A stretch of DNA of 64,000 nt, taken from IMG/VR virus record IMGVR_UViG_3300025840_000026; one strand, written 5' to 3'. The notes under the pieces are model-generated. The model worked only from the letters and a program-made list of their open reading frames with translations, was not told the origin of the DNA and made no database searches. Numbering within the stretch: the first letter of the stretch is position 1; each line of letters begins with the position of its first letter. The translations under genes were made by a program, and so were the position numbers. Source of the stretch: an uncultured virus (IMG/VR IMGVR_UViG_3300025840_000026). Lineage: Duplodnaviria > Heunggongvirae > Uroviricota > Caudoviricetes. Shown in pieces: positions 831 to 34,777 of the stretch.

Positions 831-832
831 AA

Positions 833-2994: not shown

Positions 2995-2996
2995 TA

Positions 2997-4280: not shown

Positions 4281-4284
4281 GATG

Positions 4285-4292
4285 TATAAATA
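4285..4292 (+). promoter_or_regulatory. T4-type late promoter TATAAATA, 5 nt before the gp25 ATG
   Basis: Exact gp55 consensus. Confidence 0.75.
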
Positions 4293-4297
4293 GTATA

Positions 4298-6585: not shown

Positions 6586-6657
6586 TAATGAAAGGAGTGA
6601 TCAGGAGTCCCCTGAGTAGTTTCCCATTAATTTGGATTAAATAAGGAGAAAACCAAA

Positions 6658-7131: not shown

Positions 7132-7143
7132 GGTAACCTCTAA

Positions 7144-10100: not shown

Positions 10101-10950
10101 TGCTGGTGCAGCAAGTGGTAGAGACACAGAGGTTGGTGACTCTTCAATGAGAAGTAGACACTTAAACATTAACATCATCAATTCATTTGCACACACTTAT
10201 ACACAGGGTTCACCTCGTATAGATGGTGCAACCTCAGTTTTAAACCTTGTAAGAGCAGACAATAACTACCTTGCATTAGGAACAGATGATGCAGATAATA
10301 TCTCATGGCCATATACAAAGAGACCATCAGATCAAGGTAAGGTGTTTCAAATCTCTGATGCATTTACAGAAGAACATTTAATACACGAAGACGGTAGTCA
10401 TATTATATTGGAAGAAGAAGCATGTCTCTTAAGATTTGAACCTTCTGCACATGCAATTCATAAAGGTGACTATGGAGACAACATATTAAGTGAAGATGGT
10501 GAAACACTTCTTCGTTTAGAGACTGCAACTACAGAAGAAGAAATTGATTTCTTTGTAACAGAAAGATCAATAGAGTTGACAGGAAAACATTTATATTATG
10601 AAGATGGAATAAATATCATCACTGAAGAAGGTGATTATATTATTAGAGAAGAGAGTGGTGCAAACCATTCTACATCTTTTGTTCCGATGGGTTCTACTTT
10701 GAGAACCATAAATACAATCAGTAGTCAAAATGCATATGATATTGCATACTACTTAAAAGATGAAACCGATGGTGACGATATACTTTTAGAAGATGGTTAC
10801 GGTAACCTACTCAGTGAGGAATCAAAATCAGAAGGTCTCAGAATTCATCAGCTTGATGCATTCTATCCAAACTTCTTTATTGCAGAATATGATAATCATG
10901 CAAGAAGAAGGACAAATTTAACATTTAGTGCTTATGTAAAGTCTGCATAA
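7144..10950 (+). CDS. gp7: Baseplate wedge initiator (gp7-like)
   Basis: FLRAYFEFLE; IKNIKDLYKKKGT; LQDGLYYQTHSYVI; LIHPAGHIFFGE; repeated LLEDG motifs; lies before gp8. Confidence 0.8.
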   Translation: MSHQEYISEKLSHRLPSLLPEHLREESPALEQFLRAYFEFLEAEILVLESQSDLDGVALEDGQGSLLLETATVSPSPDQDTSKVINERSATNTKSYADPFIVGEYIYGKTNGAVSRIDVINGNILYVKAVSGNGYSPKEVVEGRDGGQTAIVKSYKENTITASNRLLDYSDIDHTTEDFLDYFQKDFVPSLDLRNVVNKRLTIKNIKDLYKKKGTQESVQFLMRLLFGQDAEIRYPDNETMYLSDSNYNQRRSLAVRMTSGIPSATDKITEYYDDTNRRIVTAQANVENVYAIDTNSGIYYCDITQNHYGEFTIGKDVSFLDRDEITEYRGEILGIISDFDKGTESSSIFISHDDDGIITLESGLAASYDGDYEPHKPNLETTVGGALTLEYNRSGSMYSINDKLNFKGAVDNTRDADESLTVISALLSGTVDEIYIEDGGLNYEGGEMVVFEEDGTEGNGAEGIIGSTGDEIVLENATYWGQFEIHAETNGQTLFGGPGVKDVNGRYIVFNDNQIDVYVDGVLQVKSAYTSQNDRVTFTSGLNAGQIVEIYTQYNRLLNENGSVINYDGYIDSATNTLVSNDGRIRSIQINDGGVGFTKPPRVYPGGYIYFDDITGFEVGEQVEGTTSGATATIIKLQPKEKRVLVKRESTDTGVFQNGEEIVGQTSNTQKINRRQTVATGTGAKLFVWSDSIGGVGTINVQSQGYDFDKDAQLSETSHFNMLITAPTANLTRDLTITGDISGTTGKVVSYDSNTHVLTYTQLDGYFLDNETVSFNIVDEFTVLRSNPFFGRGVHAGEGIIQKQLLGDRGILDADAVNLQDGLYYQTHSYVIRVGESINKYRSIVKDLIHPAGHIFFGEVAIKNVIDDAQVVSTFRPTIIIKLHPTWRYELENASRDLYTSFAERDDESHIIFEQGGYPLLEDGPDMKAVTVHEHILFLHLDDGGVGHDLKSILRAAGIPDAETDPRTGLAITNTVYDTTNVTNPAGAASGRDTEVGDSSMRSRHLNINIINSFAHTYTQGSPRIDGATSVLNLVRADNNYLALGTDDADNISWPYTKRPSDQGKVFQISDAFTEEHLIHEDGSHIILEEEACLLRFEPSAHAIHKGDYGDNILSEDGETLLRLETATTEEEIDFFVTERSIELTGKHLYYEDGINIITEEGDYIIREESGANHSTSFVPMGSTLRTINTISSQNAYDIAYYLKDETDGDDILLEDGYGNLLSEESKSEGLRIHQLDAFYPNFFIAEYDNHARRRTNLTFSAYVKSA

Positions 10951-10953
10951 GTG

Positions 10954-10972
10954 TATAAATAGTATATAAATA
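10954..10972 (+). promoter_or_regulatory. Tandem late promoters TATAAATA (10954-10961, 10965-10972)
   Basis: Two exact consensus copies upstream of gp8. Confidence 0.7.
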
Positions 10973-10998
10973 ACTACATATCTGAGGAGATATAAGAA

Positions 10999-12474
10999 AT
11001 GGCAGCAATAATAACAGAAAAGTTTCGTGTTCATAATGCGAAACAGTTTAAGGAAGATTTTGGTGAATCAGCTTCATCAACCTATGTCTTCATTGGTAGA
11101 CCACAAGCATGGTCTGATGAGAATGCACCCCCAACACCTGCAAACGGTATTGGTCAGGAAGTAGATTCATGGTCAGATATGATTGCACTCAAGAAGATTG
11201 GGACAGCAGATGTATCACATGGTATAACAAGATACGACCACACATCTGGCACAACCTATGATGAGTATGCACACGATTATAGTGCAACCAACACTTCACC
11301 AGCAACTAGTTCAGATAATCTTTATGATTCAAGATTTTATGTAATTACAGACGAATACCATGTATACAAATGTATCAGAACAGGTAGAGATACTAATGGA
11401 GCAGTTGTTGCATCGACAGTAAAACCTACAGGAACAAGTGCAACAACAGTTATAGAAACCTCAGACTCAGGAGCTGCCTCAGGTCGTGGTTACAAATGGA
11501 AATACATGTATACAATTGGTGCCTCAGATACAATTAAGTTCGTTACTAGTGATTTCATGCCAGTGAAAACACTTGGTGCTCAAACAGAAATCGATGGAAC
11601 AGGAACTGCACTCAGTAGTGGTGGATTAGGAGTTGCAGCTACTGACGATGGTTCTGCACAATGGGATGTGGAGAACAGTGCAACTGATGGTGGTATTTTC
11701 CATGTAGTTGTAACTAACGGTGGTTCAGGTTATAATGACGGAACATATACTAGTGTTCCAATTGCTGGAGACGGTTCAGGTGCAACATGTAGTGTTGTTG
11801 TTTCTTCAGGTGCAATTTCTTATGTAACTGTCCCAACTGGAGAAGAAGGAACTGGTTATAGAAGAGCATCTATTGACATTGACAACATTCCATCTATTGG
11901 TTTAGGTTCAAACGGAACAGTTAAACCAATTATCTCACCTGAGATTGGTCATGGTGCAGACCCCGTTCAAGAACTTGGTGGTAACTATGTAATCGTAAAC
12001 TCAAGACTTGAGTTTGCAGAAGGTTCAGGTGACTTCCCAACAGATAACGACTTTAGAAGTATCGGTCTTATTCAAGACCCATTTACAGTTGGAACAACAA
12101 CTGTAGCATCTGCTGAAACACTTGCATCTTATAATAAGATGACACTTTCTACAGTGTCAGGAATTTCTGTAGATGATATCATTTTGAATGCATCTTCAGA
12201 TGGTTCAGGTGTTGCAGTAGGAAGAGTGGTTTCAATATCATCAAATGATGTTTCATATCTACCTATTGCTAACAGTGCAGGTGGTTATGCAGCTTTTGTT
12301 AACGCTAATACTGTATATGTAAGTGGTTCATCAATTGGAACAGTTACAAATGTCAACAGTGCATTCCCTGAAGTTCAAAGATATTCAGGACAAGTGATGT
12401 ATGTTGAGAACAGAGGAGCAGTTTCAAGAGCAGCCGACCAAATCGAAGATATTAAACTTATCATCGAAATGTAA
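10999..12474 (+). CDS. gp8: Baseplate wedge subunit (gp8-like)
   Basis: MAAIITEKFRVHNA; FYVITDEYHVYKCI; GYKWKYMYTI; ENRGAVSRAADQIEDIKLIIE. Confidence 0.9.
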   Translation: MAAIITEKFRVHNAKQFKEDFGESASSTYVFIGRPQAWSDENAPPTPANGIGQEVDSWSDMIALKKIGTADVSHGITRYDHTSGTTYDEYAHDYSATNTSPATSSDNLYDSRFYVITDEYHVYKCIRTGRDTNGAVVASTVKPTGTSATTVIETSDSGAASGRGYKWKYMYTIGASDTIKFVTSDFMPVKTLGAQTEIDGTGTALSSGGLGVAATDDGSAQWDVENSATDGGIFHVVVTNGGSGYNDGTYTSVPIAGDGSGATCSVVVSSGAISYVTVPTGEEGTGYRRASIDIDNIPSIGLGSNGTVKPIISPEIGHGADPVQELGGNYVIVNSRLEFAEGSGDFPTDNDFRSIGLIQDPFTVGTTTVASAETLASYNKMTLSTVSGISVDDIILNASSDGSGVAVGRVVSISSNDVSYLPIANSAGGYAAFVNANTVYVSGSSIGTVTNVNSAFPEVQRYSGQVMYVENRGAVSRAADQIEDIKLIIEM

Positions 12475-19252: not shown

Positions 19253-19465
19253 ATGTCAGAGTATAGTAGAGTAGAAGGACATTCAAATCTTATTAGAGAT
19301 GAAGAAACCACTGCTATCGTTAATACCGATATCAATGCATACTACATGGCTAAGAGAAGAAAAGAAATTTTTATGACTCAGGTAAATGAAATAAATACAT
19401 TAAAGAAGGAAGTAACGGACATTAAAATCCTTCTTCAAAAAATGGTAGAAAAATTAAATGGCTAA
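19253..19465 (+). CDS. Small conserved hypothetical protein (C-terminal coiled coil)
   Basis: Likely start MSEYSRVEGHSNLIRDE...AIVN, typical of the gene following VrlC-like genes in marine T4-like phages. Confidence 0.6.
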   Translation: MSEYSRVEGHSNLIRDEETTAIVNTDINAYYMAKRRKEIFMTQVNEINTLKKEVTDIKILLQKMVEKLNG

Positions 19466-21038
19466 GACAGTAGACAACCACAGCACAATCGAAGACTTTA
19501 GAAGACGTTATAACGAACTTGCAACAGACGTTGGTGATATATCAGGCCTAAGAGACACTATTAAAAACTTTAATGGTGGTTCAATTGTAGATGCTGTAAA
19601 TGCAATCGAAGATAAAACTTTTTTCTTTCAAGAATTTATTTATACTGCAACTTCAGGTCAGACTACATTTAGTGGTGATGATGAATTCGAAAATGAACTA
19701 AAATTTAAAAGAAACAGAATACAGGTTTTCAAAAACGATCAACATTTATTAGAGACAGATGATTATATTATCGCCTCACCATTAGGTGCATTTCATACTT
19801 CTATTGTTTTAAATGTAGCTGCATCTTTAAATGATAAGATTACTATCTATTCATATACTGGTTCCTTTGAGGGAACAGCTAATGCAGCTAATATTATAGG
19901 GTATTTTTCAGAGTCTGCTGCAAACACTATTTACAATACCAATGATAACGGTGTTATTCTAAATGGTGATAACTCTACACCAACTACTACATTACAAGCA
20001 GGTTACACACTTCAACTTGCAGGTAAAACATATGCAGAAGAAGATATTACACTTGCAAGTGGTAAGACATTAACTGCACCTATTATTACAGATGGCACTG
20101 CACAAATCACTGGTGGAGTCGGAACTTCATTCTCAAGTATTACCTCAACAAGTTTTGTGGGTAATCTAACAGGTAACGTTACATCCAGTGGTCTATCAAC
20201 ATTTTCAAATGCTGACATTAATGGTGGTGCTATTGATGGAACAACAATTGGAGCAACAACTACTTCAACTGGTGCATTTACAACTGTTAGTGCAAGTGGT
20301 GGTTTTAGTGGTAACCTAACAGGTAACGTAACTGGTAATGTAACTGGTAACTTGACAGGTAATGTTACAGGTAATGTTACAGGTGATCTGACTGGTGATG
20401 TTACAGGTGATGTAACTGGTAACTTGTCAGGAAACGTAACTGGTAATGTTACAGGTAATGTAACAGGTAATGTCACGGGGACAGTTTCAAGTATTTCTAA
20501 TCACAGCACAACTAACTTAACAGAAGGCACAAATAAATACTACACTGATGCAAGGGTAGACTCAAGAATGAGTGGTAAGGATTTAAACTTCTTTGATGAT
20601 GTTAATTATACCACAACCCCAACAGCAGGTCAAATTCTAGTATGGGACAACGCAAATCAATATTGGGAACCTGCTGATAATTCAACAACCTCAGATAGTG
20701 TTACTGAAGGTTCAAACAATTTATACTTTACGAATGCTAGAGTTTCTACAAGAGTTGACACAATACTTAATCACTCTAATCACAGTAATATTACTGCGAC
20801 TAAAGTCGGTGATGAAATTAGATTGTCTGCTGCATCACAATATGGTGACTCGGATGTTCAATCTTATTTGAGTGGTGGGGCAGGACTTGCATTGAGTGGT
20901 TCAGGAAGTTTTTCTGTAAATACAAGTAATGGTGTGAAAATTTCAGGTGATAATGTCGTATTAGATTACGAGACTACGTCCACTGCACCATCAAGTGTTG
21001 GTTCAACATCTACAGGACACCTTTGGTTTGTAATTTAA
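19458..21038 (+). CDS. Tail fibre-like protein (module 1 shaft)
   Basis: Coiled-coil N-terminus; ATSGQTTF domain; GNVT repeats; two TEGxxNxYxTxAR motifs; C-terminal STAPSS...GHLWFVI. Confidence 0.7.
   Translation: MAKTVDNHSTIEDFRRRYNELATDVGDISGLRDTIKNFNGGSIVDAVNAIEDKTFFFQEFIYTATSGQTTFSGDDEFENELKFKRNRIQVFKNDQHLLETDDYIIASPLGAFHTSIVLNVAASLNDKITIYSYTGSFEGTANAANIIGYFSESAANTIYNTNDNGVILNGDNSTPTTTLQAGYTLQLAGKTYAEEDITLASGKTLTAPIITDGTAQITGGVGTSFSSITSTSFVGNLTGNVTSSGLSTFSNADINGGAIDGTTIGATTTSTGAFTTVSASGGFSGNLTGNVTGNVTGNLTGNVTGNVTGDLTGDVTGDVTGNLSGNVTGNVTGNVTGNVTGTVSSISNHSTTNLTEGTNKYYTDARVDSRMSGKDLNFFDDVNYTTTPTAGQILVWDNANQYWEPADNSTTSDSVTEGSNNLYFTNARVSTRVDTILNHSNHSNITATKVGDEIRLSAASQYGDSDVQSYLSGGAGLALSGSGSFSVNTSNGVKISGDNVVLDYETTSTAPSSVGSTSTGHLWFVI
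20310..20477 (+). repeat. Coding tandem repeat, 14 x G(N/D)(V/L)(T/S), 12-nt period
   Basis: GNLT GNVT GNVT GNLT ... GNVT read directly from the translation. Confidence 0.9.
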
Positions 21039-21047
21039 TGGGACAAA

Positions 21048-22304
21048 ATGACAGATATATACGTAAATACTGGAACAACCTTTCAACAACCTTATAATGC
21101 TCGCCAACCTGCAATTGGTAGGGTTCCTGCGAACTCACAATTAACAGCTAGGCAACCTGTAAATGCACAAACACCATTTACCTATCAGAATAGGTCACCG
21201 TTCACTTATAGAAACCCTGTAAGTGGTCAACAACCTTATATTGCTGATGCTCAGCAACCATATCCGTATATTGCTAATGCACAGCAACCCTATATTGCGA
21301 ATAGTCAAACACCATTTACTTATCAGAACAGACAACCTGCAATAGCACAACAACCTTATATTGCTAATGCTCAACAACCATACATTGCTAATGGACAAAC
21401 TCCATTTACCTATCAAAACAGATACCCTGCTAATGCACAAACACCATATATTGCAAATGCAAGACAACCTGCTACCTACCAAGCAAGGTCTCCATTTACA
21501 TATAGAAATCCTTATATTGCAAATGCTCAACAACCCTATATTGCAAATGCTAGACAACCTTCTATTGCAAATGCACAAACACCGTTTATCTATCAGGCTG
21601 CCTATCAAGCACAGGGAAATTATCGAGTTCCTTTCACTTATCAAGTTTCAGTCCCAGCAATAGGAACAGCTCCTGCTAATGGAACACAGCCTGGTGCAAA
21701 TATAACGGTAACTGAAACAGTTTCAAATTCCACAACAGGCATGTCTTTGTGGTTGTATAAAAGCACACAAAATGCCCCACCAAGTGTGTTTGCTAATTTT
21801 ATAATTTATATAAAACTTAATTTTACCTCTACAACTGCTGTAACTATGTCAGCAAAATTTACAACTGGGCCATATAGTAACAGGTCTCTACCCTCATGGG
21901 CTTCCTCTTGGGGGACTTATTATGTTATGTGGTATCTGAGTGTTAGTTCAACACCTGATACTTTTCAACATGAAACTTCTACATCGTATATGATAGAAGA
22001 CAATGGGGGAAACCAGTATGTGGCAACTAATATAGGCACCAATAGTGATGTTACTTACTCAATTAATGGCACTTCAACAAATTATACTTGGCCAACAACC
22101 TCATATCTTGGAACTTATGGATATCAAATTAATATGACAATGGAGCAAGAAGGTTATGGTGGGGGAACAGCCACTTTTACCCATGGTCATACTTTCAGAA
22201 TGAATAAATCAGGGTTTCCTACATATACAGGCCCTAGTGTTGATACTGATAATGAGATAATAATGCTAAATTCTGGTGGTGGAACACCGCCTCCACCTGT
22301 TTAG
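21048..22304 (+). CDS. Pro/Tyr/Gln repeat protein A1 with a C-terminal globular domain
   Basis: aa 13-198 are 24 xxP-led units (QQPYIANA, QTPFTYQN, RSPFTY...), followed by a ~200-aa non-repetitive domain; ends GGGTPPPPV. Confidence 0.8.
   Translation: MTDIYVNTGTTFQQPYNARQPAIGRVPANSQLTARQPVNAQTPFTYQNRSPFTYRNPVSGQQPYIADAQQPYPYIANAQQPYIANSQTPFTYQNRQPAIAQQPYIANAQQPYIANGQTPFTYQNRYPANAQTPYIANARQPATYQARSPFTYRNPYIANAQQPYIANARQPSIANAQTPFIYQAAYQAQGNYRVPFTYQVSVPAIGTAPANGTQPGANITVTETVSNSTTGMSLWLYKSTQNAPPSVFANFIIYIKLNFTSTTAVTMSAKFTTGPYSNRSLPSWASSWGTYYVMWYLSVSSTPDTFQHETSTSYMIEDNGGNQYVATNIGTNSDVTYSINGTSTNYTWPTTSYLGTYGYQINMTMEQEGYGGGTATFTHGHTFRMNKSGFPTYTGPSVDTDNEIIMLNSGGGTPPPPV
21084..21641 (+). repeat. Coding repeat array of A1 (24 units, 186 aa)
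   Basis: Units parsed by hand from the translation. Confidence 0.85.
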
Positions 22305-22316
22305 GAGATATAAGTA

Positions 22317-23087
22317 ATGGCAATTTGGACAGGCAACCCTACACCATATACGTTTCAACAACCGTATCCGTATATTGCACAGCAACCAGCACATGCAAGA
22401 CAACCTGCAACTTATCCATTTATTGGATATGCTCCTGCTAGTGCAAGACAACCTTCTACTTATCATTTAAGAACACCGTTTACATATCATGCAAGGTCAC
22501 CGTTTACGTATCATAATAGGTATCCTGCTAATGCCCAACAACCGTATATAGCTAATAGTCAGACACCGTTTACCTACCATTCAAGACAACCTTCTACTTA
22601 TCAGGTTCCATATATTGCAAATGCAAGACAACCTTTTACGTATCATGCAAGGTCACCGTTTACGTATCATAATAGGTCTTCAATAGATTATCAGGTTCCT
22701 TATATTGCAAATGCAAGACAACCGTCTACCTATCATGCAAGGTCACCGTTCACTTATCAGGCAACTGGTAGAACACCGTTTACCTATCAAGCAAGGTCAC
22801 CGTTTACCTATAGAAACCCTGTAAATGCACAGCAACCTTATATTGCAAACGCTAGACAACCCTCTACGTATCAAGTTGTATATCAAGTTCCTACCATTTA
22901 TGCAACTCCGTATATCTATACTGTTCCTTATATTGCAACAAGACCCATTGGGCCTCTTGCAAAAGTCAAGGGTGTTTTTGTAAATGATAGTGGAACTTTA
23001 AGGAAGTTGGATGAAGTTTATGTAAATGACAGTGGAACTGCAAGAAAAATTCATCAATCAGTTCCAACTGCACAGTATCAAGAATAA
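22317..23087 (+). CDS. Pro/Tyr/Gln repeat protein B1 (mirror partner of A1)
   Basis: AGGAG RBS; aa 22-207 repeat array; C-terminus carries 2 x V(F/Y)VNDSGT. Confidence 0.8.
   Translation: MAIWTGNPTPYTFQQPYPYIAQQPAHARQPATYPFIGYAPASARQPSTYHLRTPFTYHARSPFTYHNRYPANAQQPYIANSQTPFTYHSRQPSTYQVPYIANARQPFTYHARSPFTYHNRSSIDYQVPYIANARQPSTYHARSPFTYQATGRTPFTYQARSPFTYRNPVNAQQPYIANARQPSTYQVVYQVPTIYATPYIYTVPYIATRPIGPLAKVKGVFVNDSGTLRKLDEVYVNDSGTARKIHQSVPTAQYQE
22380..22937 (+). repeat. Coding repeat array of B1 (24 units, 186 aa)
   Basis: Units parsed by hand; 21+186+49 = 256 aa, matching the ORF length. Confidence 0.85.
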
Positions 23088-23105
23088 AAGGACATAAATA
23101 GTAAT

Positions 23106-23438
23106 ATGGCTATTATTGCAAACCTCTACATAGATCAAGGAACAGACTTCAGTATCACTGTTGATGTAACTGATTCTGCTGGTGAGATATTGGAATTAGA
23201 TGATTACACTGCAGCTGCACAGATTAGAAAGACCTATAGTTCTTCGACAGTGAGTGCAACTTTTGCTACATCAATTGCAGCGTTGGCAGGTCAAGTAACT
23301 ATTTCTTTAACTGATACTCAGACATCTGCACTTGAAGCAGGAAGATATGTATATGATTTAAATATCACTAGTGCTGCAGGAGTAGTCACAAGAGTAATTG
23401 AAGGACAGGCAATCATAACGCCTGGTGTAACAAGGTAA
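23106..23438 (+). CDS. Small virion structural protein (BppU-N/Ig-like)
   Basis: ANLYIDQGTDF...AAQIRKTY...LEAGRYVYDL...RVIEG...TPGVTR, a common T4-like structural family. Confidence 0.65.
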   Translation: MAIIANLYIDQGTDFSITVDVTDSAGEILELDDYTAAAQIRKTYSSSTVSATFATSIAALAGQVTISLTDTQTSALEAGRYVYDLNITSAAGVVTRVIEGQAIITPGVTR

Positions 23439-23442
23439 TAAT

Positions 23443-23661
23443 ATGTCAGGAAATATTAAAGCAAGAGTTTTACAAACAAACACTATTCGTGCAAAACAGG
23501 TTGCAATTGGTAACTCAGCAACTAATGTAAACTTGTCTGCAAAATCTATCAATGAACTTGCAGATGTTAATGTGGTTGAAACAGATGATGGACTTCTTTC
23601 TTATGATGCAGCTACGGATAAGTGGGTTACAAAAACTGTTTTAGATGGTGGAACATTCTAA
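23443..23661 (+). CDS. Small fibre-associated protein
   Basis: INELADVN...DGLLSYDAATDKW motif; C-terminal LDGGTF. Confidence 0.55.
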   Translation: MSGNIKARVLQTNTIRAKQVAIGNSATNVNLSAKSINELADVNVVETDDGLLSYDAATDKWVTKTVLDGGTF

Positions 23662-23664
23662 TCA

Positions 23665-24567
23665 GTGAGTCCTACTTTATGGTCATGTGATGAGTGGTCA
23701 CCCCTAAAAGAAATCATTATTGGTTCACTCAAGGGTCACGAACAACTCAAAAAATATTCTTACTACATTAAAGATATTTCTATAATAAGAGATATCTTAG
23801 ATGAAGCACAAGAAGGGTTAGATACCTTTCAATCTATTTTAGAAAAACTTAACATAAAGGTTTACAGACCACATGGTTTCTGTTATAATGTAAGAGACTG
23901 TGCTGTAGTCATAGAAGATACAATTCTAGAATCTTCGATGAGATATAAAGAAGAATACGGTTATCTTGAAACATTAAAACCTATTTTTGAAGAAAAGGTT
24001 TCAGAGGGTGCAAAATTAATTACTGCACCAAAACCTACATGGAGACCTTGGGTAAATCCAAACGAACCTATTTTTGATGCAGCTAACATATGTCGATTAG
24101 GTAAGGACATATTAATCAGTATAAATGAAACTGCAAATGAACATGGAAGAGATTGGGTCTTTAAAACATTCAATCATTTAAATCACCATCATATAGTTCA
24201 AAAAGAAAGAATATCACACATTGACACTACCTTTGTTCCAATATCTAACGATACAGTTATGATAAATCAGGAAAGAGTAAAAGAGATACCATCCGTATTT
24301 AAAGATTGGAAACATATCTTTATCAATATTGAGGACATGAATAAGGAAAAACCACCTATTGTGACGACAAGATGTGCATCGGCATTTATTGGAATGAATA
24401 CCCTTTCTATAGATAATAATACTGTATGTGTCAATGAAAGGGAAGTAAAATTAATAGAAAAATTAGAAAGACATAACTTTAATTGCATACCTATACCCCT
24501 CAAACAAACTAGAACTCTATCAGGTGGACTGCATTGTTGCACTTTAGATTTACTTAGAACATCTTAA
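23665..24567 (+). CDS. Amidinotransferase (pentein superfamily, glycine/inosamine-phosphate amidinotransferase-like)
   Basis: EWSPLKEIIIG; YNVRD; FDAAN (Asp); HIDTT (His); LSGGLHCCTLDL (Cys): catalytic triad motifs intact. Confidence 0.85.
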   Translation: MSPTLWSCDEWSPLKEIIIGSLKGHEQLKKYSYYIKDISIIRDILDEAQEGLDTFQSILEKLNIKVYRPHGFCYNVRDCAVVIEDTILESSMRYKEEYGYLETLKPIFEEKVSEGAKLITAPKPTWRPWVNPNEPIFDAANICRLGKDILISINETANEHGRDWVFKTFNHLNHHHIVQKERISHIDTTFVPISNDTVMINQERVKEIPSVFKDWKHIFINIEDMNKEKPPIVTTRCASAFIGMNTLSIDNNTVCVNEREVKLIEKLERHNFNCIPIPLKQTRTLSGGLHCCTLDLLRTS

Positions 24568-28434: not shown

Positions 28435-28695
28435 ATGGCAACACAAAATACCTTTGTTATAGAGTATGGATTGTCGGTTGGTTCCACTGAGGTCATCAAT
28501 TCGTCAGGTAAGTTGCAGGCAGCTGCAATCTCAGAGTTGGATACAGATAATCTCTCAGAAGGTTCCACGAATCAATACTTTACAAACACAAGAGCGAGAG
28601 GTGCAATATCACTTGCATCAGGTGAAAGTAACTTGAGTTACGACTCTTCAACTGGTAAAATATCGTTACCACAGGTTGATGGAGGCACATTATAA
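28435..28695 (+). CDS. Small fibre-associated protein
   Basis: N-terminus paralogous to the 28695 ORF (F.I..GL.VG.TEVI.SSG); LSEGSTNQYFTNTRAR; C-terminal VDGGTL. Confidence 0.6.
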   Translation: MATQNTFVIEYGLSVGSTEVINSSGKLQAAAISELDTDNLSEGSTNQYFTNTRARGAISLASGESNLSYDSSTGKISLPQVDGGTL

Positions 28696-31100
28696 TGACA
28701 GCTAAAAATTTCATAATCAAAAACGGTCTTACTGTTGGAACAACAGAAGTCATCACTAGTTCAGGTAGTATTACATCAGCTGCAGTAGGAGATGCTCTAA
28801 ACGAAGCAATTGCAGATAAGATTGGTGGTATTATTCAGGGTTCAGGTTCAACCACAGTAACCTATGATGATACAAACGATACTATCACCATTTCATCAAC
28901 TGGTAAGACAGAAGAAGAGATTCAAGATATCGTTGGTGCTCAGTTAGTAACCAACGGTTCACATACAAATATTACTGCATCTTACGATGATTCAGGAGAC
29001 GGTGCAGTTGACCTTTCTATCTCTGATACAGTTATCAGAGGAAAGATTAGTGCAGGTGGTGATTTAAGTTATGATAACAGCACAGGTGTTGTATCATTTA
29101 CAGAAAGAACAGATGCAGAAGTTAGAGGACTTATTAGTGCAAGTGGTGATTTAAGTTATGATAACAGCACTGGTGTAATTTCATTTACTAACGATGCTGG
29201 TGATATAGAATCAGTAATCGCTGGAACTGGTTTAACTGGTGGTGGAACTTCAGGTGATGTTACATTAAGCATTGACCTTAAAGATGAAGATAACATGGCT
29301 TCAGACTCTGCAACTCATGCCGCTTCACAGCAATCAATTAAAGCATACGTTGATTCACAAATAGCAAGTAAAGATAACACAGACGAAATTACAGAAGGTT
29401 CAACTAACTTATACTTTACAAATGCAAGAGCAGATGCTAGGATTACAGCGGCATTAATTGACGAAGATGACATGTCATCAGATAGTGCTACTAGAATCCC
29501 TTCACAACAAAGTGTTAAGGCATATGTTGATTCACAAGTTGATACAGTAGATGCATTAAGTGAACTAAGTGGTGATACTGATGATGTATCAGAAGGTTCG
29601 ACTAATTTATATTATACTGATGCAAGAGCCAGAGCGGCCATAAGTGCATCAGGAGATTTAAGTTATAACAGTTCAACAGGTGTTGTATCATACACAGAAC
29701 CTACAATGTATGCCGATTCAGATGCCAGAGGTGCAATCTCAGTCACAGATTCAGGTGGAGATGGTTCACTTGCATATAATTCATCAACAGGTGTAATTAC
29801 ATATACAGGCCCTAGTGCATCAGAAGTTCAAGCACATATTACTGCTGGAACTGGTGTGTCGGTTTCAAGTGGTCAAGTTAGTATTGGTCAGGCAGTAGGA
29901 ACTTCAGATTCACCCACATTTGCAGGTGTAACACTTACAGGTGCATCAACAGTTTCAGGACATGTTCTTCCAAGTGCAGATGTTACCTACGACTTAGGTT
30001 CAGCATCGTATCAATGGAGAGACGTATATGTCGGGCCAGGGTCACTTTATGTTAACGGACAAAAAGTATTAGAAGATAGTTCAGGAACAATCGTTGTTTC
30101 TGCTGATTCAGACCAAAACCTTCAAATGAAAACTGCTGGTAGTGGTGACATTGAGTTCAACCCATCAGGCACAGGTATCATTCAAGCAAAAGGAACACTT
30201 CAAATGCTTGATGGTGAGTTAATCACCAACAGTGCTGGTAATGCAGTTGCATTCGGAAACAACATCAGTGTAGATCAAATTGCTTCTAGAAGTGCAGACA
30301 CAAACTTAGTATTGAGTGGTAACGGAACAGGTAATGTTACATTGAATGACGATGTTGTCATCTCAGGTTCATTGACAGTTTCAGGAACAACAACTACAGT
30401 TAACTCAGAGACAATCAATCTTGCAGATAACATTCTAAACCTAAACTCTGATTTTACATCAGGTTCACCTACACAGGATGCAGGTATAAGTGTTTCAAGA
30501 GGTGGTTCAACTGCAAAAACATTCTTATGGGATGAAACCAACGATAGATGGACAGTCGGTTCAGATAGCATGGTTGCAGGAACATTCATTGGTAATCTAA
30601 CAGGGGATGTCACAGGAGATGTTACAGGTAATGCTTCAACAGCAAGTGCTTGGGCAACTGCAAGAACACTAAGTTTAACAGGTGCAGTTACAGGTTCTGC
30701 TTCAGTAGATGGTTCAGGTAATGTTTCACTTGCTACAACAGCAACAAGTGACCCAACATTGACACTTGCAGGAGATGCTTCAGGTAGTGCAACATTTACA
30801 AATTTAGGTAACGCAACATTAACAGTTACAGTTGCAAACAATTCACATACACACACTGTATCAAATATTTCAGACTTGACTGTAACAGCAGCTGAGTTGA
30901 ACTTCATGGATAATGTAACATCTAATGTTCAAACTCAGTTGAATGCAAAATATGGTAGTGGTTCTAATGCAACACTAGGAACAATTACTACAAGTAATGC
31001 AAGTAATTCAGGTGGATATGTAAGAAATGTTTATCAATCTACATCAGCTCCTACTTCAGGTGATGGTGCAGTTGGTGATTTATGGATTCTCTACTCTTAA
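28695..31100 (+). CDS. Long tail fibre-like protein (module 2 shaft)
   Basis: Repeated ISAxGDLSYxxSTGV, DEDxMxSDSAT...SQQSxKAYVDSQ and EGSTNLYxTxARA motifs; C-terminal QSTSAPTSGDGAVGDLWILYS. Confidence 0.7.
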   Translation: MTAKNFIIKNGLTVGTTEVITSSGSITSAAVGDALNEAIADKIGGIIQGSGSTTVTYDDTNDTITISSTGKTEEEIQDIVGAQLVTNGSHTNITASYDDSGDGAVDLSISDTVIRGKISAGGDLSYDNSTGVVSFTERTDAEVRGLISASGDLSYDNSTGVISFTNDAGDIESVIAGTGLTGGGTSGDVTLSIDLKDEDNMASDSATHAASQQSIKAYVDSQIASKDNTDEITEGSTNLYFTNARADARITAALIDEDDMSSDSATRIPSQQSVKAYVDSQVDTVDALSELSGDTDDVSEGSTNLYYTDARARAAISASGDLSYNSSTGVVSYTEPTMYADSDARGAISVTDSGGDGSLAYNSSTGVITYTGPSASEVQAHITAGTGVSVSSGQVSIGQAVGTSDSPTFAGVTLTGASTVSGHVLPSADVTYDLGSASYQWRDVYVGPGSLYVNGQKVLEDSSGTIVVSADSDQNLQMKTAGSGDIEFNPSGTGIIQAKGTLQMLDGELITNSAGNAVAFGNNISVDQIASRSADTNLVLSGNGTGNVTLNDDVVISGSLTVSGTTTTVNSETINLADNILNLNSDFTSGSPTQDAGISVSRGGSTAKTFLWDETNDRWTVGSDSMVAGTFIGNLTGDVTGDVTGNASTASAWATARTLSLTGAVTGSASVDGSGNVSLATTATSDPTLTLAGDASGSATFTNLGNATLTVTVANNSHTHTVSNISDLTVTAAELNFMDNVTSNVQTQLNAKYGSGSNATLGTITTSNASNSGGYVRNVYQSTSAPTSGDGAVGDLWILYS

Positions 31101-31136
31101 TAAATAAGAGTAGATTTTTGAGGAATTAAAATATAA

Positions 31137-32204
31137 ATGGTTACTGGTAATCAGAAGGTAAAAACACCCGCAGGTTGGAATTCAACACAAGGTGCTTGGG
31201 TTAAGACACCTACAGCTTGGAAAGCAGTAGAACAAGTTTATGTAAAGACCCCTACTGGGTGGAATAATGCCTCAGGACAGGACAATGCACAACAACCGTA
31301 TCCATACATTGCAAATGCACAAACACCTTACATAGCAAATGCTCAGCAACCATATCCGTATATTGCAAATGCTCAGACACCATATATTGCAAATGCTCAG
31401 CAACCGTATCCATACATTGCAAATGCACAAACACCATATATTGCAAATGCACAACAACCGTATCCGTATATTGCAAATGCACAAACACCTTACATAGCAC
31501 AAGCAAGGCAACCTTCTACTTATCAAAATAGGTCACCATTTACCTATCAGTTGCCTTATATTGCTAATGCACAACAACCTTATATTGCACAAGCAAGGCA
31601 ACCTTCTACTTATCAGCATAGGAATCCATTTACATATAGGTTACCTTATATTGCAAATGGTCAACAACCTTATATTGCGAATGCAAGGCAACCTTCTACT
31701 TATCAAAATAGGTCACCATTTACATATAGGTTACCTGTTATTGCTAATGCACAACAACCTTATATTGCTAATGCAAGACAACCTTCTACTTATCAAAATA
31801 GGTCACCATTTACATACAGGGTTCCTTATATTGCTAATGCAAGACAACCGTTTACATACATAGCATCTTATAGGGTTCCTTATATTGCTAATGCAAGACA
31901 ACCGTTTACCTATAATGCAAGGTATCCTGCTAATGCAAGATATCCTGCAAACGGTCAAACACCGTTTACATATAACGCAAGGTATCCTGCTGGTTATCCT
32001 GCAAACTATCAAACACCGTTTACATATAACGCAAGGTATCCTGCTGGTTATCCTGCAAACTATCAAACACCGTTTACATATAACGCAAGGACGCCAGGAA
32101 CGTATCCGTATATAGCAAACTATTCTTACAGGTCACCTCGTTCATATTTCTATCCAGTTGGTGGCGGAACACCACCACCACTACCTGAAGGATTCGGTAA
32201 ATAG
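31137..32204 (+). CDS. Pro/Tyr/Gln/Arg repeat protein A2
   Basis: N-terminus has 3 x VKTPxxW; aa 52-331 are 34 xxP-led units; ends GGGTPPPLPEGFGK (51+280+24 = 355 aa). Confidence 0.8.
   Translation: MVTGNQKVKTPAGWNSTQGAWVKTPTAWKAVEQVYVKTPTGWNNASGQDNAQQPYPYIANAQTPYIANAQQPYPYIANAQTPYIANAQQPYPYIANAQTPYIANAQQPYPYIANAQTPYIAQARQPSTYQNRSPFTYQLPYIANAQQPYIAQARQPSTYQHRNPFTYRLPYIANGQQPYIANARQPSTYQNRSPFTYRLPVIANAQQPYIANARQPSTYQNRSPFTYRVPYIANARQPFTYIASYRVPYIANARQPFTYNARYPANARYPANGQTPFTYNARYPAGYPANYQTPFTYNARYPAGYPANYQTPFTYNARTPGTYPYIANYSYRSPRSYFYPVGGGTPPPLPEGFGK
31290..32129 (+). repeat. Coding repeat array of A2 (34 units, 280 aa)
   Basis: Includes 4 x 54-nt tandem copies and several 90-nt tandem blocks. 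Confidence 0.9.
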
Positions 32205-32227
32205 ATGATGAATAGGAGTAATAACTA

Positions 32228-33163
32228 ATGGCAGGTCAAATTCAAGGTTTTTATCAGTTACCAGTAATTGGGTCAGCCAGTGCTACAGGTAATTATCAAG
32301 TTCCTTATATTGCAAATGCAAGGCAACCTAATACCTATATTGCATCGTATCGTGTTCCGTATATTGCTAATGCAAGGCAACCTAACACCTATATTGCATC
32401 GTATCGTGTTCCGTATATTGCAAACGCAAGGCAACCGTTTACCTATAGAGTTCCATTTACCTATCGTGTTCCATACATTGCAAATGGTCAAAACCCATTT
32501 ACATATAATAATAGATACCCAGCTGGTTACCCTGCAAACGGTCAAACACCGTTTACCTATAATGCAAGGTATCCTGCTAATGCCCAACAACCTTATATAG
32601 CAAATGCACAATCACCATTTACTTATCAAGCAAGGTCACCATTTACGTATCATCATAGGTCACCAAGGAATGCTCAACAACCTTATATAGCAAATGCACA
32701 AACACCATTTACTTATCAAGCAAGGTCACCGTTTACGTATCATAATAGGTCACCAAGAAATGCACAGCAACCAGTTATAGCAAATGCACAAACACCGTTT
32801 ACGTATCATCATAGGTCACCGTTTACGTATCATAATAGGTCACCAAGGAATGCTCAACAACCTTATATAGCAAATGCACAAACACCGTTTACCTATCAAA
32901 ATAGACAACCTTCTACTTATGCAACACAAGGTAGAACACCGTTCACGTATCAAAACAGACAACCTTCTACATATGCAACACAAGGTCAAACACCGTTTAC
33001 CTATCAAAATAGACAACCTTCTACATATGCAAGACAAGGTAGAACACCGTTTACCTATCAAAACAGACAACCTTCTACATATGCAAGACAAGGTAGAACA
33101 CCTGTTATCCGTTGGGATGGTGTATTGTCACAACAATGGCCTGCAACACCTATATCTTCCTAG
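32228..33163 (+). CDS. Pro/Tyr/Gln/Arg repeat protein B2 (mirror partner of A2)
   Basis: AGGAG RBS; aa 10-289 are 34 units (9+280+22 = 311 aa). Confidence 0.8.
   Translation: MAGQIQGFYQLPVIGSASATGNYQVPYIANARQPNTYIASYRVPYIANARQPNTYIASYRVPYIANARQPFTYRVPFTYRVPYIANGQNPFTYNNRYPAGYPANGQTPFTYNARYPANAQQPYIANAQSPFTYQARSPFTYHHRSPRNAQQPYIANAQTPFTYQARSPFTYHNRSPRNAQQPVIANAQTPFTYHHRSPFTYHNRSPRNAQQPYIANAQTPFTYQNRQPSTYATQGRTPFTYQNRQPSTYATQGQTPFTYQNRQPSTYARQGRTPFTYQNRQPSTYARQGRTPVIRWDGVLSQQWPATPISS
32255..33094 (+). repeat. Coding repeat array of B2 (34 units, 280 aa)
   Basis: Units parsed by hand from the translation. Confidence 0.9.
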
Positions 33164-33202
33164 TGACTAAATACTAGTAAGTTTAACAATTCGGTTTATA
33201 TT

Positions 33203-34777
33203 ATGGAAAAACTTACATCTCTTGATCAGGTGAAAGAAAAATTAGTTTCTACTGATTGGGATAGCCTAAAAAATTATTATCAACTTCGTTCTGAAACTCC
33301 TTATTGGATAGGTTCCATTGACCTTAAAAGTTCATACAGTGAACAGAGTAGTTATGAAGTCATAAAATATATTTGGGATGAATTAATCCCGCCCCTAAAA
33401 CTTGTAAAGTGGGGGTCTTTTTTAGAACATAGAAAGAATAAAAAAATTCAAGAACTCCAAGGTCTAAAGTGGAACTCATCTATCTATTTAAAATACATTC
33501 ATCAATGTTATTCTTCTGCACCTGAGAAGTTAGCTGCTGGTTTTTTTGGGTTTGACATTGCAGATGAGAATGACCAATCTACTACCTTTAGTAGTATTCT
33601 TGATACACCTCTGAGTGAACAATCTGAAACTAACTTAGTTTCCATGTTCTACCATGCAGCTAAAGCACATTGGATTATGGATACCGTTCAAACAGAAGGT
33701 ATGCATCACCCTATTCAATGTGTATTATTCCCACAAGACGAAAGAAAAACACACATGAATATGTTTGTTCATCCAGGCTCTGTTAGGTCTTTAGTTGTAG
33801 AAGAAATGGATGACCCTGAATTTGACTTATTGGTTTGGGATGCATACGATTTTGTTGAAGGAGAGAAGTTTACCTTTGATGGTATTTTAGACTATTGGAA
33901 GGAAAGATTAACTAAGTTTGATAAAGAACACTTTAATGTATCTTTTACATTCCAAGGTGGTATATTAGAATTTGCAACAGACTTTGCAGGTGCAGAATTT
34001 AGACAAGAGGTATATCAATACTCAAAGAAAGTAAACTCCTTGATGAAAAGAAAACCCCTCAACATCTATATTGGAGTAGATTCTACACACAATAAAATTG
34101 AGCATATAACAAAATATAGTATCGAGAAATCGATTGAAAAATCTTTTTCTAGTGGTTTTGATACACAACTTGCAAGATTCAATCCTGAGATTAAATACTT
34201 AGATATTGCAAACATTCCTGAATATACTAGGTCTTATGCAAATCAAAACACAGAGTTTACCTATAGTAGATTTTTGATTCCTTATCTAGAAAATTATGAA
34301 GGATTCAGTATGTTCTTAGACGATGATTTCTTTTTTGTTGAAACACCACTTCGTATGTTCTATTATATGAGACCCGATGATGCAGTTGCATGTATCCAGT
34401 ATCGTCAATATGAACATGTAAAAACTAAATTTAATGGTGCAGTTAACATTGATTATCCGTGTAAACTTTGGTCTAGTATGATGTTCTTTAATAATGGTCA
34501 TGAAGATTGTAAGAAGTTAACACCTGAGGTAGTTAACACGTGGACTGGGAAACAACTACACCAATTTGAATGGACAGATAAAATAAGTAAGATTCCTGAG
34601 AAATATATATTTACAGAAGGATATGATGACCCTGTAGAAAAGTGGCACTATACGGGTATTCACTACACTAGAGGTGGCCCATGGATTGATAACATGGACA
34701 CTTCAATCATAGACAACTTAGATGTCTATGAAAAAATTAAAAATTCCTACTTTACAAATAAAAGTAATGTGGTATAA
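33203..34777 (+). CDS. Two-domain protein: unknown N-terminal domain plus GT-A glycosyltransferase
   Basis: C-terminal half: IYIGVDS; TEFTYSRFLIPYL; MFLDDDF (DxD); KLWSSMMFFN; LHQFEW; HYTRGGPW. Confidence 0.75.
   Translation: MEKLTSLDQVKEKLVSTDWDSLKNYYQLRSETPYWIGSIDLKSSYSEQSSYEVIKYIWDELIPPLKLVKWGSFLEHRKNKKIQELQGLKWNSSIYLKYIHQCYSSAPEKLAAGFFGFDIADENDQSTTFSSILDTPLSEQSETNLVSMFYHAAKAHWIMDTVQTEGMHHPIQCVLFPQDERKTHMNMFVHPGSVRSLVVEEMDDPEFDLLVWDAYDFVEGEKFTFDGILDYWKERLTKFDKEHFNVSFTFQGGILEFATDFAGAEFRQEVYQYSKKVNSLMKRKPLNIYIGVDSTHNKIEHITKYSIEKSIEKSFSSGFDTQLARFNPEIKYLDIANIPEYTRSYANQNTEFTYSRFLIPYLENYEGFSMFLDDDFFFVETPLRMFYYMRPDDAVACIQYRQYEHVKTKFNGAVNIDYPCKLWSSMMFFNNGHEDCKKLTPEVVNTWTGKQLHQFEWTDKISKIPEKYIFTEGYDDPVEKWHYTGIHYTRGGPWIDNMDTSIIDNLDVYEKIKNSYFTNKSNVV

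Follow-up and report, generated by a model that had tools for sequence, protein, structure and literature searches.

Thin, repeat-built homotrimeric fibres with which phages and other viruses attach to hosts, such as the triple beta-helix, the triple beta-spiral and the collagen-like fibres, are composed of identical chains running in parallel, so that a mirrored second gene is unnecessary to them. In the rods of spectrin alpha/beta and in the SMC arms, alpha-helical chains or arms lie side by side and antiparallel with their repeats in register, while the stalk of the streptococcal antigen I/II is formed within one polypeptide by an alpha helix and a polyproline-II helix, the repeats being of 82 and 39 residues. 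In the needle domain of gp37, the tip protein of the long tail fibre of phage T4, each strand spans no more than some tens of residues. The strands go out to the receptor-binding head and return, hence they are antiparallel and their lengths must match. This domain is treated in PMC9659904, which cites Bartual et al., and PMC6957217 describes seven iron atoms placed along it.

Here we describe two adjacent genes, A1 and B1, from a 64,000-nucleotide stretch of DNA of an uncultured virus (the whole of this stretch is called the window below), whose products carry repeat arrays that mirror each other (Table 1). By analogy, the shaft that we propose for such A/B pairs would resemble a split and much longer T4 gp37 needle: like the latter, it would belong to a T4-like phage fibre, with extended strands that lead to a receptor-binding head and return from it. 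However, the outgoing and returning strands belong to one chain in gp37 and to two gene products in A/B (single-chain relatives of which exist, see below), and the A/B arrays are 186 to about 540 aa long and use a two-type repeat alphabet, whereas the gp37 needle strands are shorter. As to the gp37-type topology, the sequence itself shows the mirror rule and the equal lengths of the arrays; the out-and-back course of the strands is proposed, and a trimeric state is only one possibility. The A1, B1, A2 and B2 arrays contain no HxH metal motifs such as those of the gp37 needle, and no sequence or profile similarity of the arrays to gp37 or to the annotated tail-fibre families of Pfam, PHROG and NCBIfam was detected. 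Among PDB chains, at E up to 1, nothing was retrieved with A1 or A2, and B1 gave two chance-level matches (ATP synthase alpha, E 0.5).

The antigen I/II stalk shares with the proposed shaft its long and thin shape, two antiparallel repeat regions (one of them proline-rich), a head at the fold-back and repeat-to-repeat pairing, but it is a single bacterial polypeptide without a two-type unit code. Spectrin and SMC rods are also similar in the lateral, antiparallel association of their chains or arms and in the register of the repeats; unlike in these rods, long helices are excluded in the A/B arrays by a proline every 6-10 residues, and the long proline-free heptad helices of alpha-helical coiled coils are absent from the arrays. 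The parallel homotrimeric fibres have in common with A/B a thin, repeat-built shape and, presumably, the role in host attachment; no run of three or more collagen-like Gly-X-Y triplets occurs in the four arrays.

Table 1. Coordinates of the A1/B1 locus, its neighbours and the second pair in the window
Feature	Position	Strand	Basis or match
Upstream fibre-like protein, 526 aa, first gene of the conserved type-1 module	19458-21038	+	PHROG 697 structural protein
Gene A1, 418 aa	21048-22304	+	intact ORF
A1 repeat array, aa 13-198, 24 units	21084-21641	+	hand parse of translation
A1 C-terminal non-repeat domain, aa 199-418	21642-22301	+	
GGAG Shine-Dalgarno-like site for B1	22304-22307	+	sequence reading
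Gene B1, 256 aa	22317-23087	+	intact ORF
B1 repeat array, aa 22-207	22380-22937	+	
B1 C-terminal domain, aa 208-256	22938-23084	+	
Downstream protein, 110 aa, possibly an LtfC-like beta-sandwich	23106-23438	+	PHROG 1084 (E 2.6e-28), PHROG 3304
72-aa ORF, last gene of the conserved type-1 module	23443-23661	+	PHROG 13853
Gene A2, 355 aa, A-type gene of the second pair	31137-32204	+	
Gene B2, 311 aa, mirror complement of A2	32228-33163	+	

A1 begins with a hairpin-like motif (DIYVNTGTTF), which is followed by the repeat array and by a variable C-terminal domain with the GGGTPPPPV end; the protein has no family match in Pfam, PHROG or NCBIfam. In B1, a short N-terminus precedes the array, and a double hairpin motif follows it: the C-terminal domain, conserved among B1-type proteins, contains the motif (V/F)(Y/F)VNDSGTxRK twice, resembling the single N-terminal motif of A1, and the match of B1 to PHROG 13729 is confined to aa 215-248. 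A unit-like extra stretch, QQPYPYIA (aa 14-21), lies outside the limits that the first-pass annotation, made from the DNA alone, had set for the B1 array. The two genes are located on one strand with a spacing of 12 nt; the GGAG site starts on the last nucleotide of TAG, the stop codon of A1 (22302-22304), and the B1 ATG lies 9 nt further on. As for the C-terminal domain of A1, which is proposed to be the distal tip or receptor-binding head, only one relative of it was found among 5.8 billion proteins, and it is alignable to its orthologue in a related locus (L003). Its AlphaFold2 (AF2) model, built from a 4-sequence alignment, is all-beta and of low confidence (pLDDT 34), and the best score obtained with it in the ESM Atlas (0.87, unnamed clusters) is below the meaningful level.

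The units of the A1 array are of 6, 8, 10 or 16 residues, and the unit alphabet comprises two types, I (xxPYIANA together with the short xxPxNA) and T (xxPFTYxx), the T-type units of A1 being fewer than its I-type ones. The first-pass annotation had claimed that B1, read backwards, repeats the unit string of A1 with the types exchanged, and both our hand re-parse and an ungapped antiparallel print of the two arrays reproduced its unit strings exactly. Read from the N- to the C-terminus, the unit lengths of A1 (aa 13-198) are 6 6 10 6 8 6 6 8 10 8 8 6 8 8 8 6 8 8 6 8 8 8 16 6, and all the 24 lengths of B1, read from aa 207 to aa 22 in the C- to N-terminal direction, are equal to them. Each array is indeed of 186 aa, and even the irregular 16-mers are aligned (A1 177-192 opposite B1 43-28), as had been noted. 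In this register, residue i of A1 stands opposite residue 220-i of B1. Past the three degenerate terminal units, 21 units remain. A type can be assigned to both members of 19 of these facing pairs, which are opposite without exception; the two untyped pairs are those of the proline-free RSSIDY and of the 16-mers, and same-type pairs do not occur. The caution expressed by the first-pass annotation about the three terminal units and RSSIDY was justified, as an automatic parser divides them differently and finds a longest strictly perfect A1/B1 run of 68 aa; the register itself runs on ungapped through the degenerate terminal units and RSSIDY.

The same register is obtained independently of any parsing. 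When only the P.TY and P.IA cores were labelled and the arrays were correlated without gaps, A1 and B1 gave 13 complementary core pairs and no clashes in a single register. The antiparallel-complement score was 52, against 34 for the parallel-complement, 18 for the antiparallel same-type and 24 for the parallel same-type mode, and this comparison of the four modes rejects both parallel and same-type pairing. Shuffling of the B1 units yielded a mean of 21.8 (sd 3.8) and a maximum of 48, none of the 20000 shuffles attaining 52 (z 7.9). When the types were ignored and prolines alone were compared, the peak (24 of the 32 B1 prolines) fell exactly at the register derived from the types.

A DNA-level palindrome as the source of the mirror is ruled out: an inverted repeat between A1 and B1 was searched for and is absent, and the minus-strand ORF at 21195-21644 reads otherwise, the reverse strand of I-type DNA not encoding T-type units. 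The mirror must therefore be maintained at the protein level. A1 and B1 are adjacent genes on the same strand with arrays of equal unit lengths and opposite types, read in reverse and in one ungapped register; the mirror-complementary A/B fibre pair, which these properties delimit, is a working class of this analysis and corresponds to no published family.

The second pair of the window obeys the same rule with another unit string. A2 carries three N-terminal VKTPxGW motifs, an array and the GGGTPPPLPEGFGK end; in A2/B2 all 33 unit boundaries are common, 24 complementary cores fall into a single register, and none of 20000 shuffles attains the observed score (z 13.2). In related viral contigs, antiparallel-complement was the best of the four pairing modes in 38 of 42 distinct adjacent pairs, and proline positions alone recovered the type register in 37 of the 42 and failed to do so in five. 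The 31 distinct unit strings of these relatives have 825 boundaries in common, the totals being 858 for A and 855 for B, and their facing units are I:T in 283 cases, T:I in 120, T:T in six and I:I in none; the longest relatives reach 36-39 complementary cores over about 500 aa in a single register with no same-type clash. The claim that the rule is general and not a duplication artefact was thus borne out, both by these strings and by the lack of an inverted DNA repeat.

Array length ranges from about 100 to 540 aa across the relatives and covaries between A and B (Pearson r 0.92 for 42 non-independent pairs). Insertions and deletions are matched: the loci L005 and L009 differ by a 6-to-8 unit change in both genes, and block changes are present in both genes in the comparisons L011/L016, L040/L043 and L036/L044. 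In a single case the change is uncompensated, A of L014 having a block of 20 additional aa close to the tip end and its B being identical to that of L011. The mirror rule is kept in L055 despite the gene order B then A; it is weaker in divergent type-1 lineages, where 11 of 21 boundaries (L057) and 8 of 11 (the L042 group) are common.

The proline spacing of the arrays suggests an extended beta-type chain. One proline parity is kept by 2512 of 2527 array prolines (99.4%), only 7 of 2453 P-P spacings being odd, as expected if every second residue of an extended strand points one way. In the four arrays of the window proline makes up 13-15% of the residues, and the longest proline-free stretches are of 9-15 aa. 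The A1 array (13% Pro) contains 12 Arg, no Lys and one acidic residue, and that of B1 contains 15 Arg and one acidic residue; both are strongly cationic, so charge should be of no help to pairing. The arrays also carry 54-nt and 90-nt higher-order DNA repeats. AF2 modelled the arrays as unstructured (pLDDT about 35). For a single-chain relative, P0001 (18-sequence alignment, mean pLDDT 40), the only confidently modelled part was at residues about 405-440, in its B1-type C-terminal domain, which forms four beta strands (pLDDT 62-82).

Based on these regularities, we consider it probable that the two chains associate in antiparallel orientation to form the shaft of a fibre, the C-terminal domain of A being the tip and the N-terminus of A together with the C-terminus of B forming the base. 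A1 and B1 would then be two chains of one virion fibre of a marine T4-like myovirus, with their proline-punctuated arrays lying side by side in opposite directions and each unit facing one that has its length but the other type, I (PYIANA-like) against T (PFTYxx-like). The paired arrays would make up an extended shaft of considerable length, probably in beta conformation; at about 3.3 Å per residue, fully extended chains would measure an estimated 60 nm or so in A1/B1 and about 95 nm in A2/B2. A should run from the base to the tip, where it would terminate in the variable head domain, and B should start at the tip and return toward the base, where its C-terminal hairpin motifs would meet the N-terminal motif of A. 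As to the oligomeric state, the fibre might consist of one A:B duplex, or of three as in the six-stranded gp37 needle.

The same data should be weighed against other explanations of the mirror. A and B could have no mutual contact and both align on a third component, for example a central rod of the upstream fibre protein, so that the mirrored strings would be two chains reading one ruler from opposite ends. Such an arrangement would agree with the presence of conserved fibre-like genes next to every pair and with the cationic nature of both arrays, which argues against a bare duplex. A common ruler, however, predicts equal lengths and not a strict exchange of types (no I:I and six T:T facings among 403 I/T-typed pairs), and no neighbour changes its length together with the arrays: the flanking fibre-like genes (526-aa and 801-aa upstream, 110-aa and 524-aa downstream) are conserved at 68-90% identity, while the arrays vary from about 100 to 540 aa, hence none of them tracks the array length. 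We regard a third component as unlikely. We suppose it to be quite unlikely, too, that the arrays are flexible, mostly disordered spacers or surface-binding tails and the mirror is a by-product of higher-order repeat expansion through gene conversion or slippage. The low AF2 confidence across the arrays, the 54-nt and 90-nt repeats, which could expand via slippage, and the uncompensated block of L014 relative to L011 speak for it; but there is no inverted DNA similarity between A and B, the reverse strand of I-type units does not code for T-type ones, and we know of no mutational process that copies unit order backwards into another alphabet. Moreover, the proline parity and the 96% of common boundaries indicate selection on register.

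Pairing within one kind of chain, that is, antiparallel A:A and B:B fibres to which the A/B mirror would be secondary, is to be considered because A2 scores 68 against itself without a clash and A1 scores 36. Yet the cognate A:B scores exceed the self scores (96 and 52, respectively), the longest perfect self runs are of 28-44 aa against 280 aa for A2/B2, and the A and B array lengths change together across the relatives. With its perfect run of only 68 aa, A1/B1 is separated from self pairing less clearly by the strict-run measure; taken together, these data make homotypic fibres very improbable. Finally, A1/B1 contains degenerate stretches (the three terminal units, RSSIDY and the 16-mers) that the automatic parser divides differently, and this might raise suspicion of chance or a parsing artefact. 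This explanation, to which we give practically no credence, is refuted by the agreement of the type- and proline-based parse-free tests, by the failure of all 20000 shuffles and by the 31 strings obeying the rule. Antiparallel pairing of A with B is the reading that we retain.

A separate question is what determines the choice of partner. It had been argued that A1 is unable to align end-to-end with B2, and the array lengths (186 aa versus about 270-290 aa) confirm this: the cognate pairs score 52 (A1/B1) and 96 (A2/B2) and are free of clashes, whereas the crosses reach 36 (8 clashing core residues) and 34 (14 such residues). Among 38 A proteins, the cognate B was the top or tied-top partner of 33; of the five exceptions, three were outscored only by the B of a close orthologue, and the ORFs of the other two are truncated at contig ends. 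A role of unit order as specificity code and length ruler may be envisaged from the in silico scores, in which cognates exceed crosses; at the same time, non-cognate chains retain perfectly mirrored stretches of 38-44 aa, and the terminal domains, which are not the same in the two pair types, might determine the partner just as well. That unit order decides the A/B partner and prevents mispairing may be suggested from the strings. Mutual information analysis revealed covariation of positions 1-2 of I-units with positions 7-8 of T-units and of I8 with T1, T2 and T4; the facing-end values (z 6-20) exceed the same-end ones (z 1.2 or less for I7-8/T7-8, up to 3.1 for I1-2/T1-2) but do not constitute independent evidence of contact, since neighbouring units are mirrored too (repeat-context confounding).

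A more far-reaching version, a peptide pairing code, can be put forward only tentatively, and we hold it to be rather doubtful. According to it, the unit strings by themselves would set partner choice, register and the length of an antiparallel two-chain beta fibre, two types and three main length classes (6, 8 and 10) allowing one phage to build two or more orthogonal fibres from one alphabet, and in some lineages the duplex might also be processed, or closed at its tip, by the Hint domain behind the poly-Gly end of A. If such a code were true, it would parallel base pairing at the level of proteins, and further orthogonal pairs could be composed freely.

The termini of the chains also fit antiparallel A/B pairing. 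The one hairpin motif at the A1 N-end and the two at the B1 C-end resemble the three motifs of the A2 N-end, and natural single-chain relatives (P0001, P0022, P0024, P0035 and others) join two arrays to a head of A1 type and a tail of B1 type; the self-mirror of these fused forms is modest, their proline peak being reached by 1 to 119 of 2000 shuffles. Some A relatives contain a Hint-superfamily domain, whose first residue is a Cys preceded by a poly-Gly run and whose last residues are His-Asn. It was recognized as Intein_splicing in A of L063 (45.1 bits, cut-off 35.8), as Vint and Hint in A of L061 (32.5 bits, cut-off 27, and 31.4 bits, cut-off 29.7), and as Vint in A of L043 (28.1 bits, cut-off 27); in A of L040 the Hint-type scores are under the cut-offs. 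Altogether, 5 of 16 scanned A proteins have a Hint-type match, including a weak one in L055. A-type bacterial intein-like (BIL) domains, of the Hint kind, are described in PMC7765530 as occurring in hypervariable proteins. Like BIL domains, the Hint domain of the A relatives is situated in a hypervariable protein, autocleavage there being putative; in contrast, a Pfam profile search detected no Hint domain in A1 and A2 of the window, both of which end with GGGTPPP... at that place.

Each A/B pair lies within a conserved module of 4-5 genes. In related loci, the N-terminal ~215 aa of the 526-aa protein are conserved directly upstream of A1-type genes. The 110-aa gene directly follows B in 21 related loci, and the 72-aa ORF comes after it in 20. 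From its matches to PHROG 3304, 'L-shaped tail fiber protein assembly' (E 7.4e-24), and, under the 27-bit cut-off, to Pfam LtfC PF23926 (19.5 bits), the 110-aa protein may act in the assembly of the fibre or as an accessory to it. The A/B genes are situated between the neck genes and the gene of a giant DUF4815 protein, which we take to be VrlC. PMC7029224 gives the name host recognition cluster to the stretch bounded by the VrlC gene and gp14. It is likely, as part of the pairing reading given above, that the source is a marine T4-like myovirus and that the A/B genes belong to its host-recognition region.

Cultured phages offer hardly any counterparts. In 50,697 cultured phage records, tblastn retrieved no match for B1 or for the C-terminal domain of A1 and only six weak ones for A2 (hypothetical proteins of Pseudomonas phages, E 3e-4 or weaker), which are taken as compositional; blastn against cultured phage records gave nothing, and the PYIANA DNA pattern was absent from HTVC008M, Melnitz-2 and Mosig. 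All the 223 relatives found are unnamed or annotated as 'hypothetical protein'. The motif words PYIANA, PFTYQ and FTYQN have 0 occurrences in the searched literature, which lies outside the subscription journals, and no published description of a mirror-coded fibre pair was found in it.

If the A and B chains do pair, they would represent a host-recognition fibre of a not yet described design and, to our knowledge, the first fibre whose register and partner choice are laid down in a readable repeat code of two genes. This would explain how fibre length in abundant marine T4-like phages can vary (about 100 to 540 residues per array) with assembly being kept, and would provide protein design with a natural, evolvable set of orthogonal beta-type protein-protein zippers. 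It would also give a role to unannotated gene pairs of wide occurrence in ocean viromes.

The unit strings that the first-pass annotation had read in A1 and B1 were reproduced from the translations and from an ungapped antiparallel print of the two chains. Residues 13-198 of A1 and 207-22 of B1 share an identical series of 24 unit lengths, 186 aa in each chain, and the irregular 16-mers of the two proteins lie opposite each other in the print. Past the degenerate start there are 21 units; for all but RSSIDY and the 16-mers a type can be assigned on both sides, and at each of these 19 positions the two chains differ in type, I (PYIANA-like) facing T (PFTYxx-like). When only the P.TY and P.IA cores were labelled and the chains were slid past each other without gaps, the antiparallel opposite-type mode scored 52 with no clashes, the other three modes giving 34, 18, and 24; with the B1 units shuffled, the score was 21.8 ± 3.8, and none of 20000 shuffles reached 52. 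For A2/B2 the score is 96 against 28.7 ± 5.1 after shuffling (0 of 20000 reach the observed value). Proline positions alone, with type ignored, peak in A1/B1 in exactly the same register as the type test. As to a possible origin of the symmetry in the DNA, no inverted DNA repeat was found between A1 and B1, and an ORF check showed that the strand opposite the A1 array encodes something other than a T-type array; the symmetry is thus confined to the protein level.

The mirror observation is real and general. The search of viral contigs with A1 yielded 67 loci (numbered with L), 57 of them with two adjacent array ORFs; in the other 10 the contig breaks off within 782 nt of the single array ORF, in the direction in which the partner is expected. 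Together with the window, these loci provide 42 distinct adjacent pairs. The generality proposed for the rule holds in them, the antiparallel-complement mode being strictly the top of the four in 38 pairs; of the other four, L032 and L046 have an A truncated by the contig end, L055 gives a tie, and L038 is a further exception. Of 38 A proteins, 33 score highest, alone or in a tie, with their cognate B; of the remaining five, three score higher only with the B of a close orthologue and two are truncated. The proline and type tests concur in 37 of the 42 pairs, and in the long pairs of L011 and L016 there are 36-39 complementary cores in one register over ~500 aa, with no same-type clashes. Automatic parsing resulted in 31 distinct A strings; over these, A has 858 unit boundaries and B 855, and 825 are common to both chains. 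Coincident units oppose I to T 283 times, T to I 120 times, T to T 6 times, and I to I never; among the short units of neither type (mostly xxPxNA), 257 lie opposite a T unit and 5 opposite an I unit. Divergent lineages of type 1 (A1/B1-like) blur the rule, 11 of 21 boundaries being common in L057 and 8 of 11 in the L042 group. L055 keeps the rule although its two genes stand in the opposite order, B2-type before A2-type; the A2-type gene has a weak match to Hint.

Between L005 and L009, one unit of A changes from 6 to 8 residues, and the facing B unit changes likewise; in L011/L016, L040/L043, L036/L044, and L018/L026/L027 blocks are inserted or replaced at mirror positions of both genes. The A array of L014 is longer than that of L011 by a 20-aa block (6+6+8) close to its tip end, although the two B proteins are identical; this may reflect either a change tolerated at the tip or an error in repeat assembly.

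Prolines occupy one parity in 2512 of 2527 cases (74 arrays), only 7 of the 2453 proline-to-proline spacings are odd, and the common unit lengths, 6, 8, and 10, are all even. An extended strand has a period of two, alternate residues pointing opposite ways, and the proline pattern therefore suggests a beta-type ribbon or needle. If the arrays are of this type, the physical register is probably offset from the unit alignment by an odd number of residues, which would put the prolines of both chains on non-hydrogen-bonded sites. The extra or missing residues of 10- and 6-residue units are located at the N-side of I units and at the C-side of T units, so that in the antiparallel alignment the length changes come opposite each other. 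Acidic residues are nearly absent from the arrays and Lys is missing altogether, the Arg count being 12-27; the pairing would therefore not be electrostatic. The A1 and B1 arrays, like all related ones, are strongly cationic and also nearly lack Cys, Trp, and Met; tight packing of two such chains does not account for this net positive charge.

The best explanation, which we consider probable, is that A and B physically pair in antiparallel orientation. The paired chains would make an out-and-back fibre with the C-terminal domain of A at the distal tip, a topology suggested by the likeness of the end motifs, the variable C-terminal part of A, and the existence of single-chain proteins. The N-terminal DIYVNTGTTF of A1 resembles two motifs at the C-terminus of B1, and the N-terminus of A2 has three such motifs; antiparallel pairing would bring these ends together. 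The region of A past the array is highly variable among relatives: in A1 it is a domain of ~220 aa with a single detectable relative, and in other A proteins a domain of 95-230 aa, a ~30-aa tail, or a Hint domain. Several clusters of single-chain proteins combine an A1-type head with a B1-type tail, the self-mirror between their halves being only modest. AF2 models (of the relative P0001 and of the A1 C-terminal domain) are of low confidence overall; the sole confident region in P0001 is the C-terminal part, the counterpart of the motif-bearing end of B1, with four strands.

In many relatives, A has a poly-Gly run followed by Cys and a Hint/intein-like domain ending in His-Asn, as in A-type BIL domains; this domain might perform self-cleavage at the fibre tip or other thioester chemistry. 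A1 and A2 lack it, ending at the corresponding point in GGGTPPP...

Among known designs the T4 gp37 needle comes closest, being described as six-stranded antiparallel beta with the head at the turn (PMC9659904) and as having iron sites along its length (PMC6957217). In contrast to this needle, the A/B proteins are split over two genes and several times longer, have no HxH motifs, and show no sequence similarity to it. Searches of PDB, family profiles, and cultured phage records found no match to solved structures, protein families, or cultured phages, and literature searches found no published description of the mirror rule or of A:B pairing. In small Pseudomonas phages, A2 has weak tblastn matches to hypothetical proteins (38% identity, ~200 aa, E 3e-4); these are probably compositional.

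The window represents the structural module of a T4-like myovirus, whose major capsid protein shares 65-67% identity with its counterparts in Methylophilales phage Melnitz and in the Pelagibacter phages HTVC008M and Mosig. According to a study of pelagimyophages, their "host recognition cluster" is the variable region from the VrlC gene to gp14, and tail fibres are the genes after VrlC in most genomes (PMC7029224). Provided that the giant DUF4815 protein, assumed here as a candidate VrlC, is indeed VrlC, both pairs lie in the corresponding region. Each pair is inside its own module, conserved in related loci.

Coordinates of the features discussed (window positions unless a locus or accession is named)
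Feature	Position	Details
Baseplate genes	57-12474	
Giant DUF4815 protein	next after baseplate genes	2242 aa
Fibre-like gene run	after giant protein, to ~34.8 kb	
Type-1 module	19458-23661	526-aa protein, A1, B1, 110-aa LtfC-like protein, 72-aa ORF (20-21 loci)
Fibre-like protein upstream of A1	19458-21038	tandem repeat 20309-20473
A1	21048-22304	array 21084-21641; GGGTPPP end 22270-22301
B1	22317-23087	array 22380-22937
Arginine-deiminase-like protein	23665-24567	300 aa
Type-2 (A2/B2-like) module	28695-34777	C-terminal half of 801-aa protein, A2, B2, 524-aa protein (41 loci)
A2	31137-32204	GGGTPPP end ~32160-32201
B2	32228-33163	
First 2OG-Fe(II) oxygenase	35372-36079	PF13640, E 2.8e-9
Second 2OG-Fe(II) oxygenase	36958-37662	PF13759, E 2e-19
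Neck, terminase, sheath, tube, portal, capsid genes	beyond fibre-like run	
A of L011	3824-5980	
A of L014	3824-6040	
Reversed pair of L055	2715-4510	
Hint/intein-bearing A (examples)	L043:3173-4600; L040:2505-3908; L061:3866-5161; L063:3836-5137	
Single-chain proteins P0001, P0022, P0024, P0035, P0038-P0040, P0048, P0049		~445 aa; A1-type N-terminus, two arrays round small middle domain, B1-type C-terminus
Weak A2 matches, Pseudomonas phages	PQ287279.1 32589-33125; MK819239.1 34089-34628	

The fibre-like protein upstream of A1 contains ~13 tandem copies of the 4-residue GN[VL]T (12-nt period); its conserved part in relatives is the N-terminal ~215 aa. Two genes past B1, a protein scores 27.6 bits against the arginine deiminase family (PF02274; cut-off 22.8), and Arg is the sole charged residue of the arrays, one Asp or Glu excepted; a link is speculative, since only 4 of the fetched loci have this gene beside the pair. 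As for the two oxygenases at the end of the fibre region, the family of the first includes prolyl hydroxylases; any connection with the fibre arrays, which are 13-15% proline, would be speculative.

The mismatch expected between A1 and B2 was confirmed: the crosses score 36 (A1 with B2; 8 clashing core residues) and 34 (A2 with B1; 14), against 52 and 96 for the cognate pairs, both free of clashes. Perfect mirroring extends without a break over at most 38 aa in each cross, 280 aa in A2/B2, and 68 aa in A1/B1, where RSSIDY and the 16-mers interrupt it. On a contig with two pairs (L007 and L021), the runs with the own partner are 168 and 202 aa and those of the crosses 44 and 44, while over the 31 strings the median run is 168 aa for cognate pairs and 46 aa for the 930 non-cognate combinations. 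Besides their unit strings, the A1/B1 and A2/B2 pair types differ in the end domains, which could determine the choice of partner just as well. Judging from the sequences, the unit strings fit a code that would keep the two fibre types apart.
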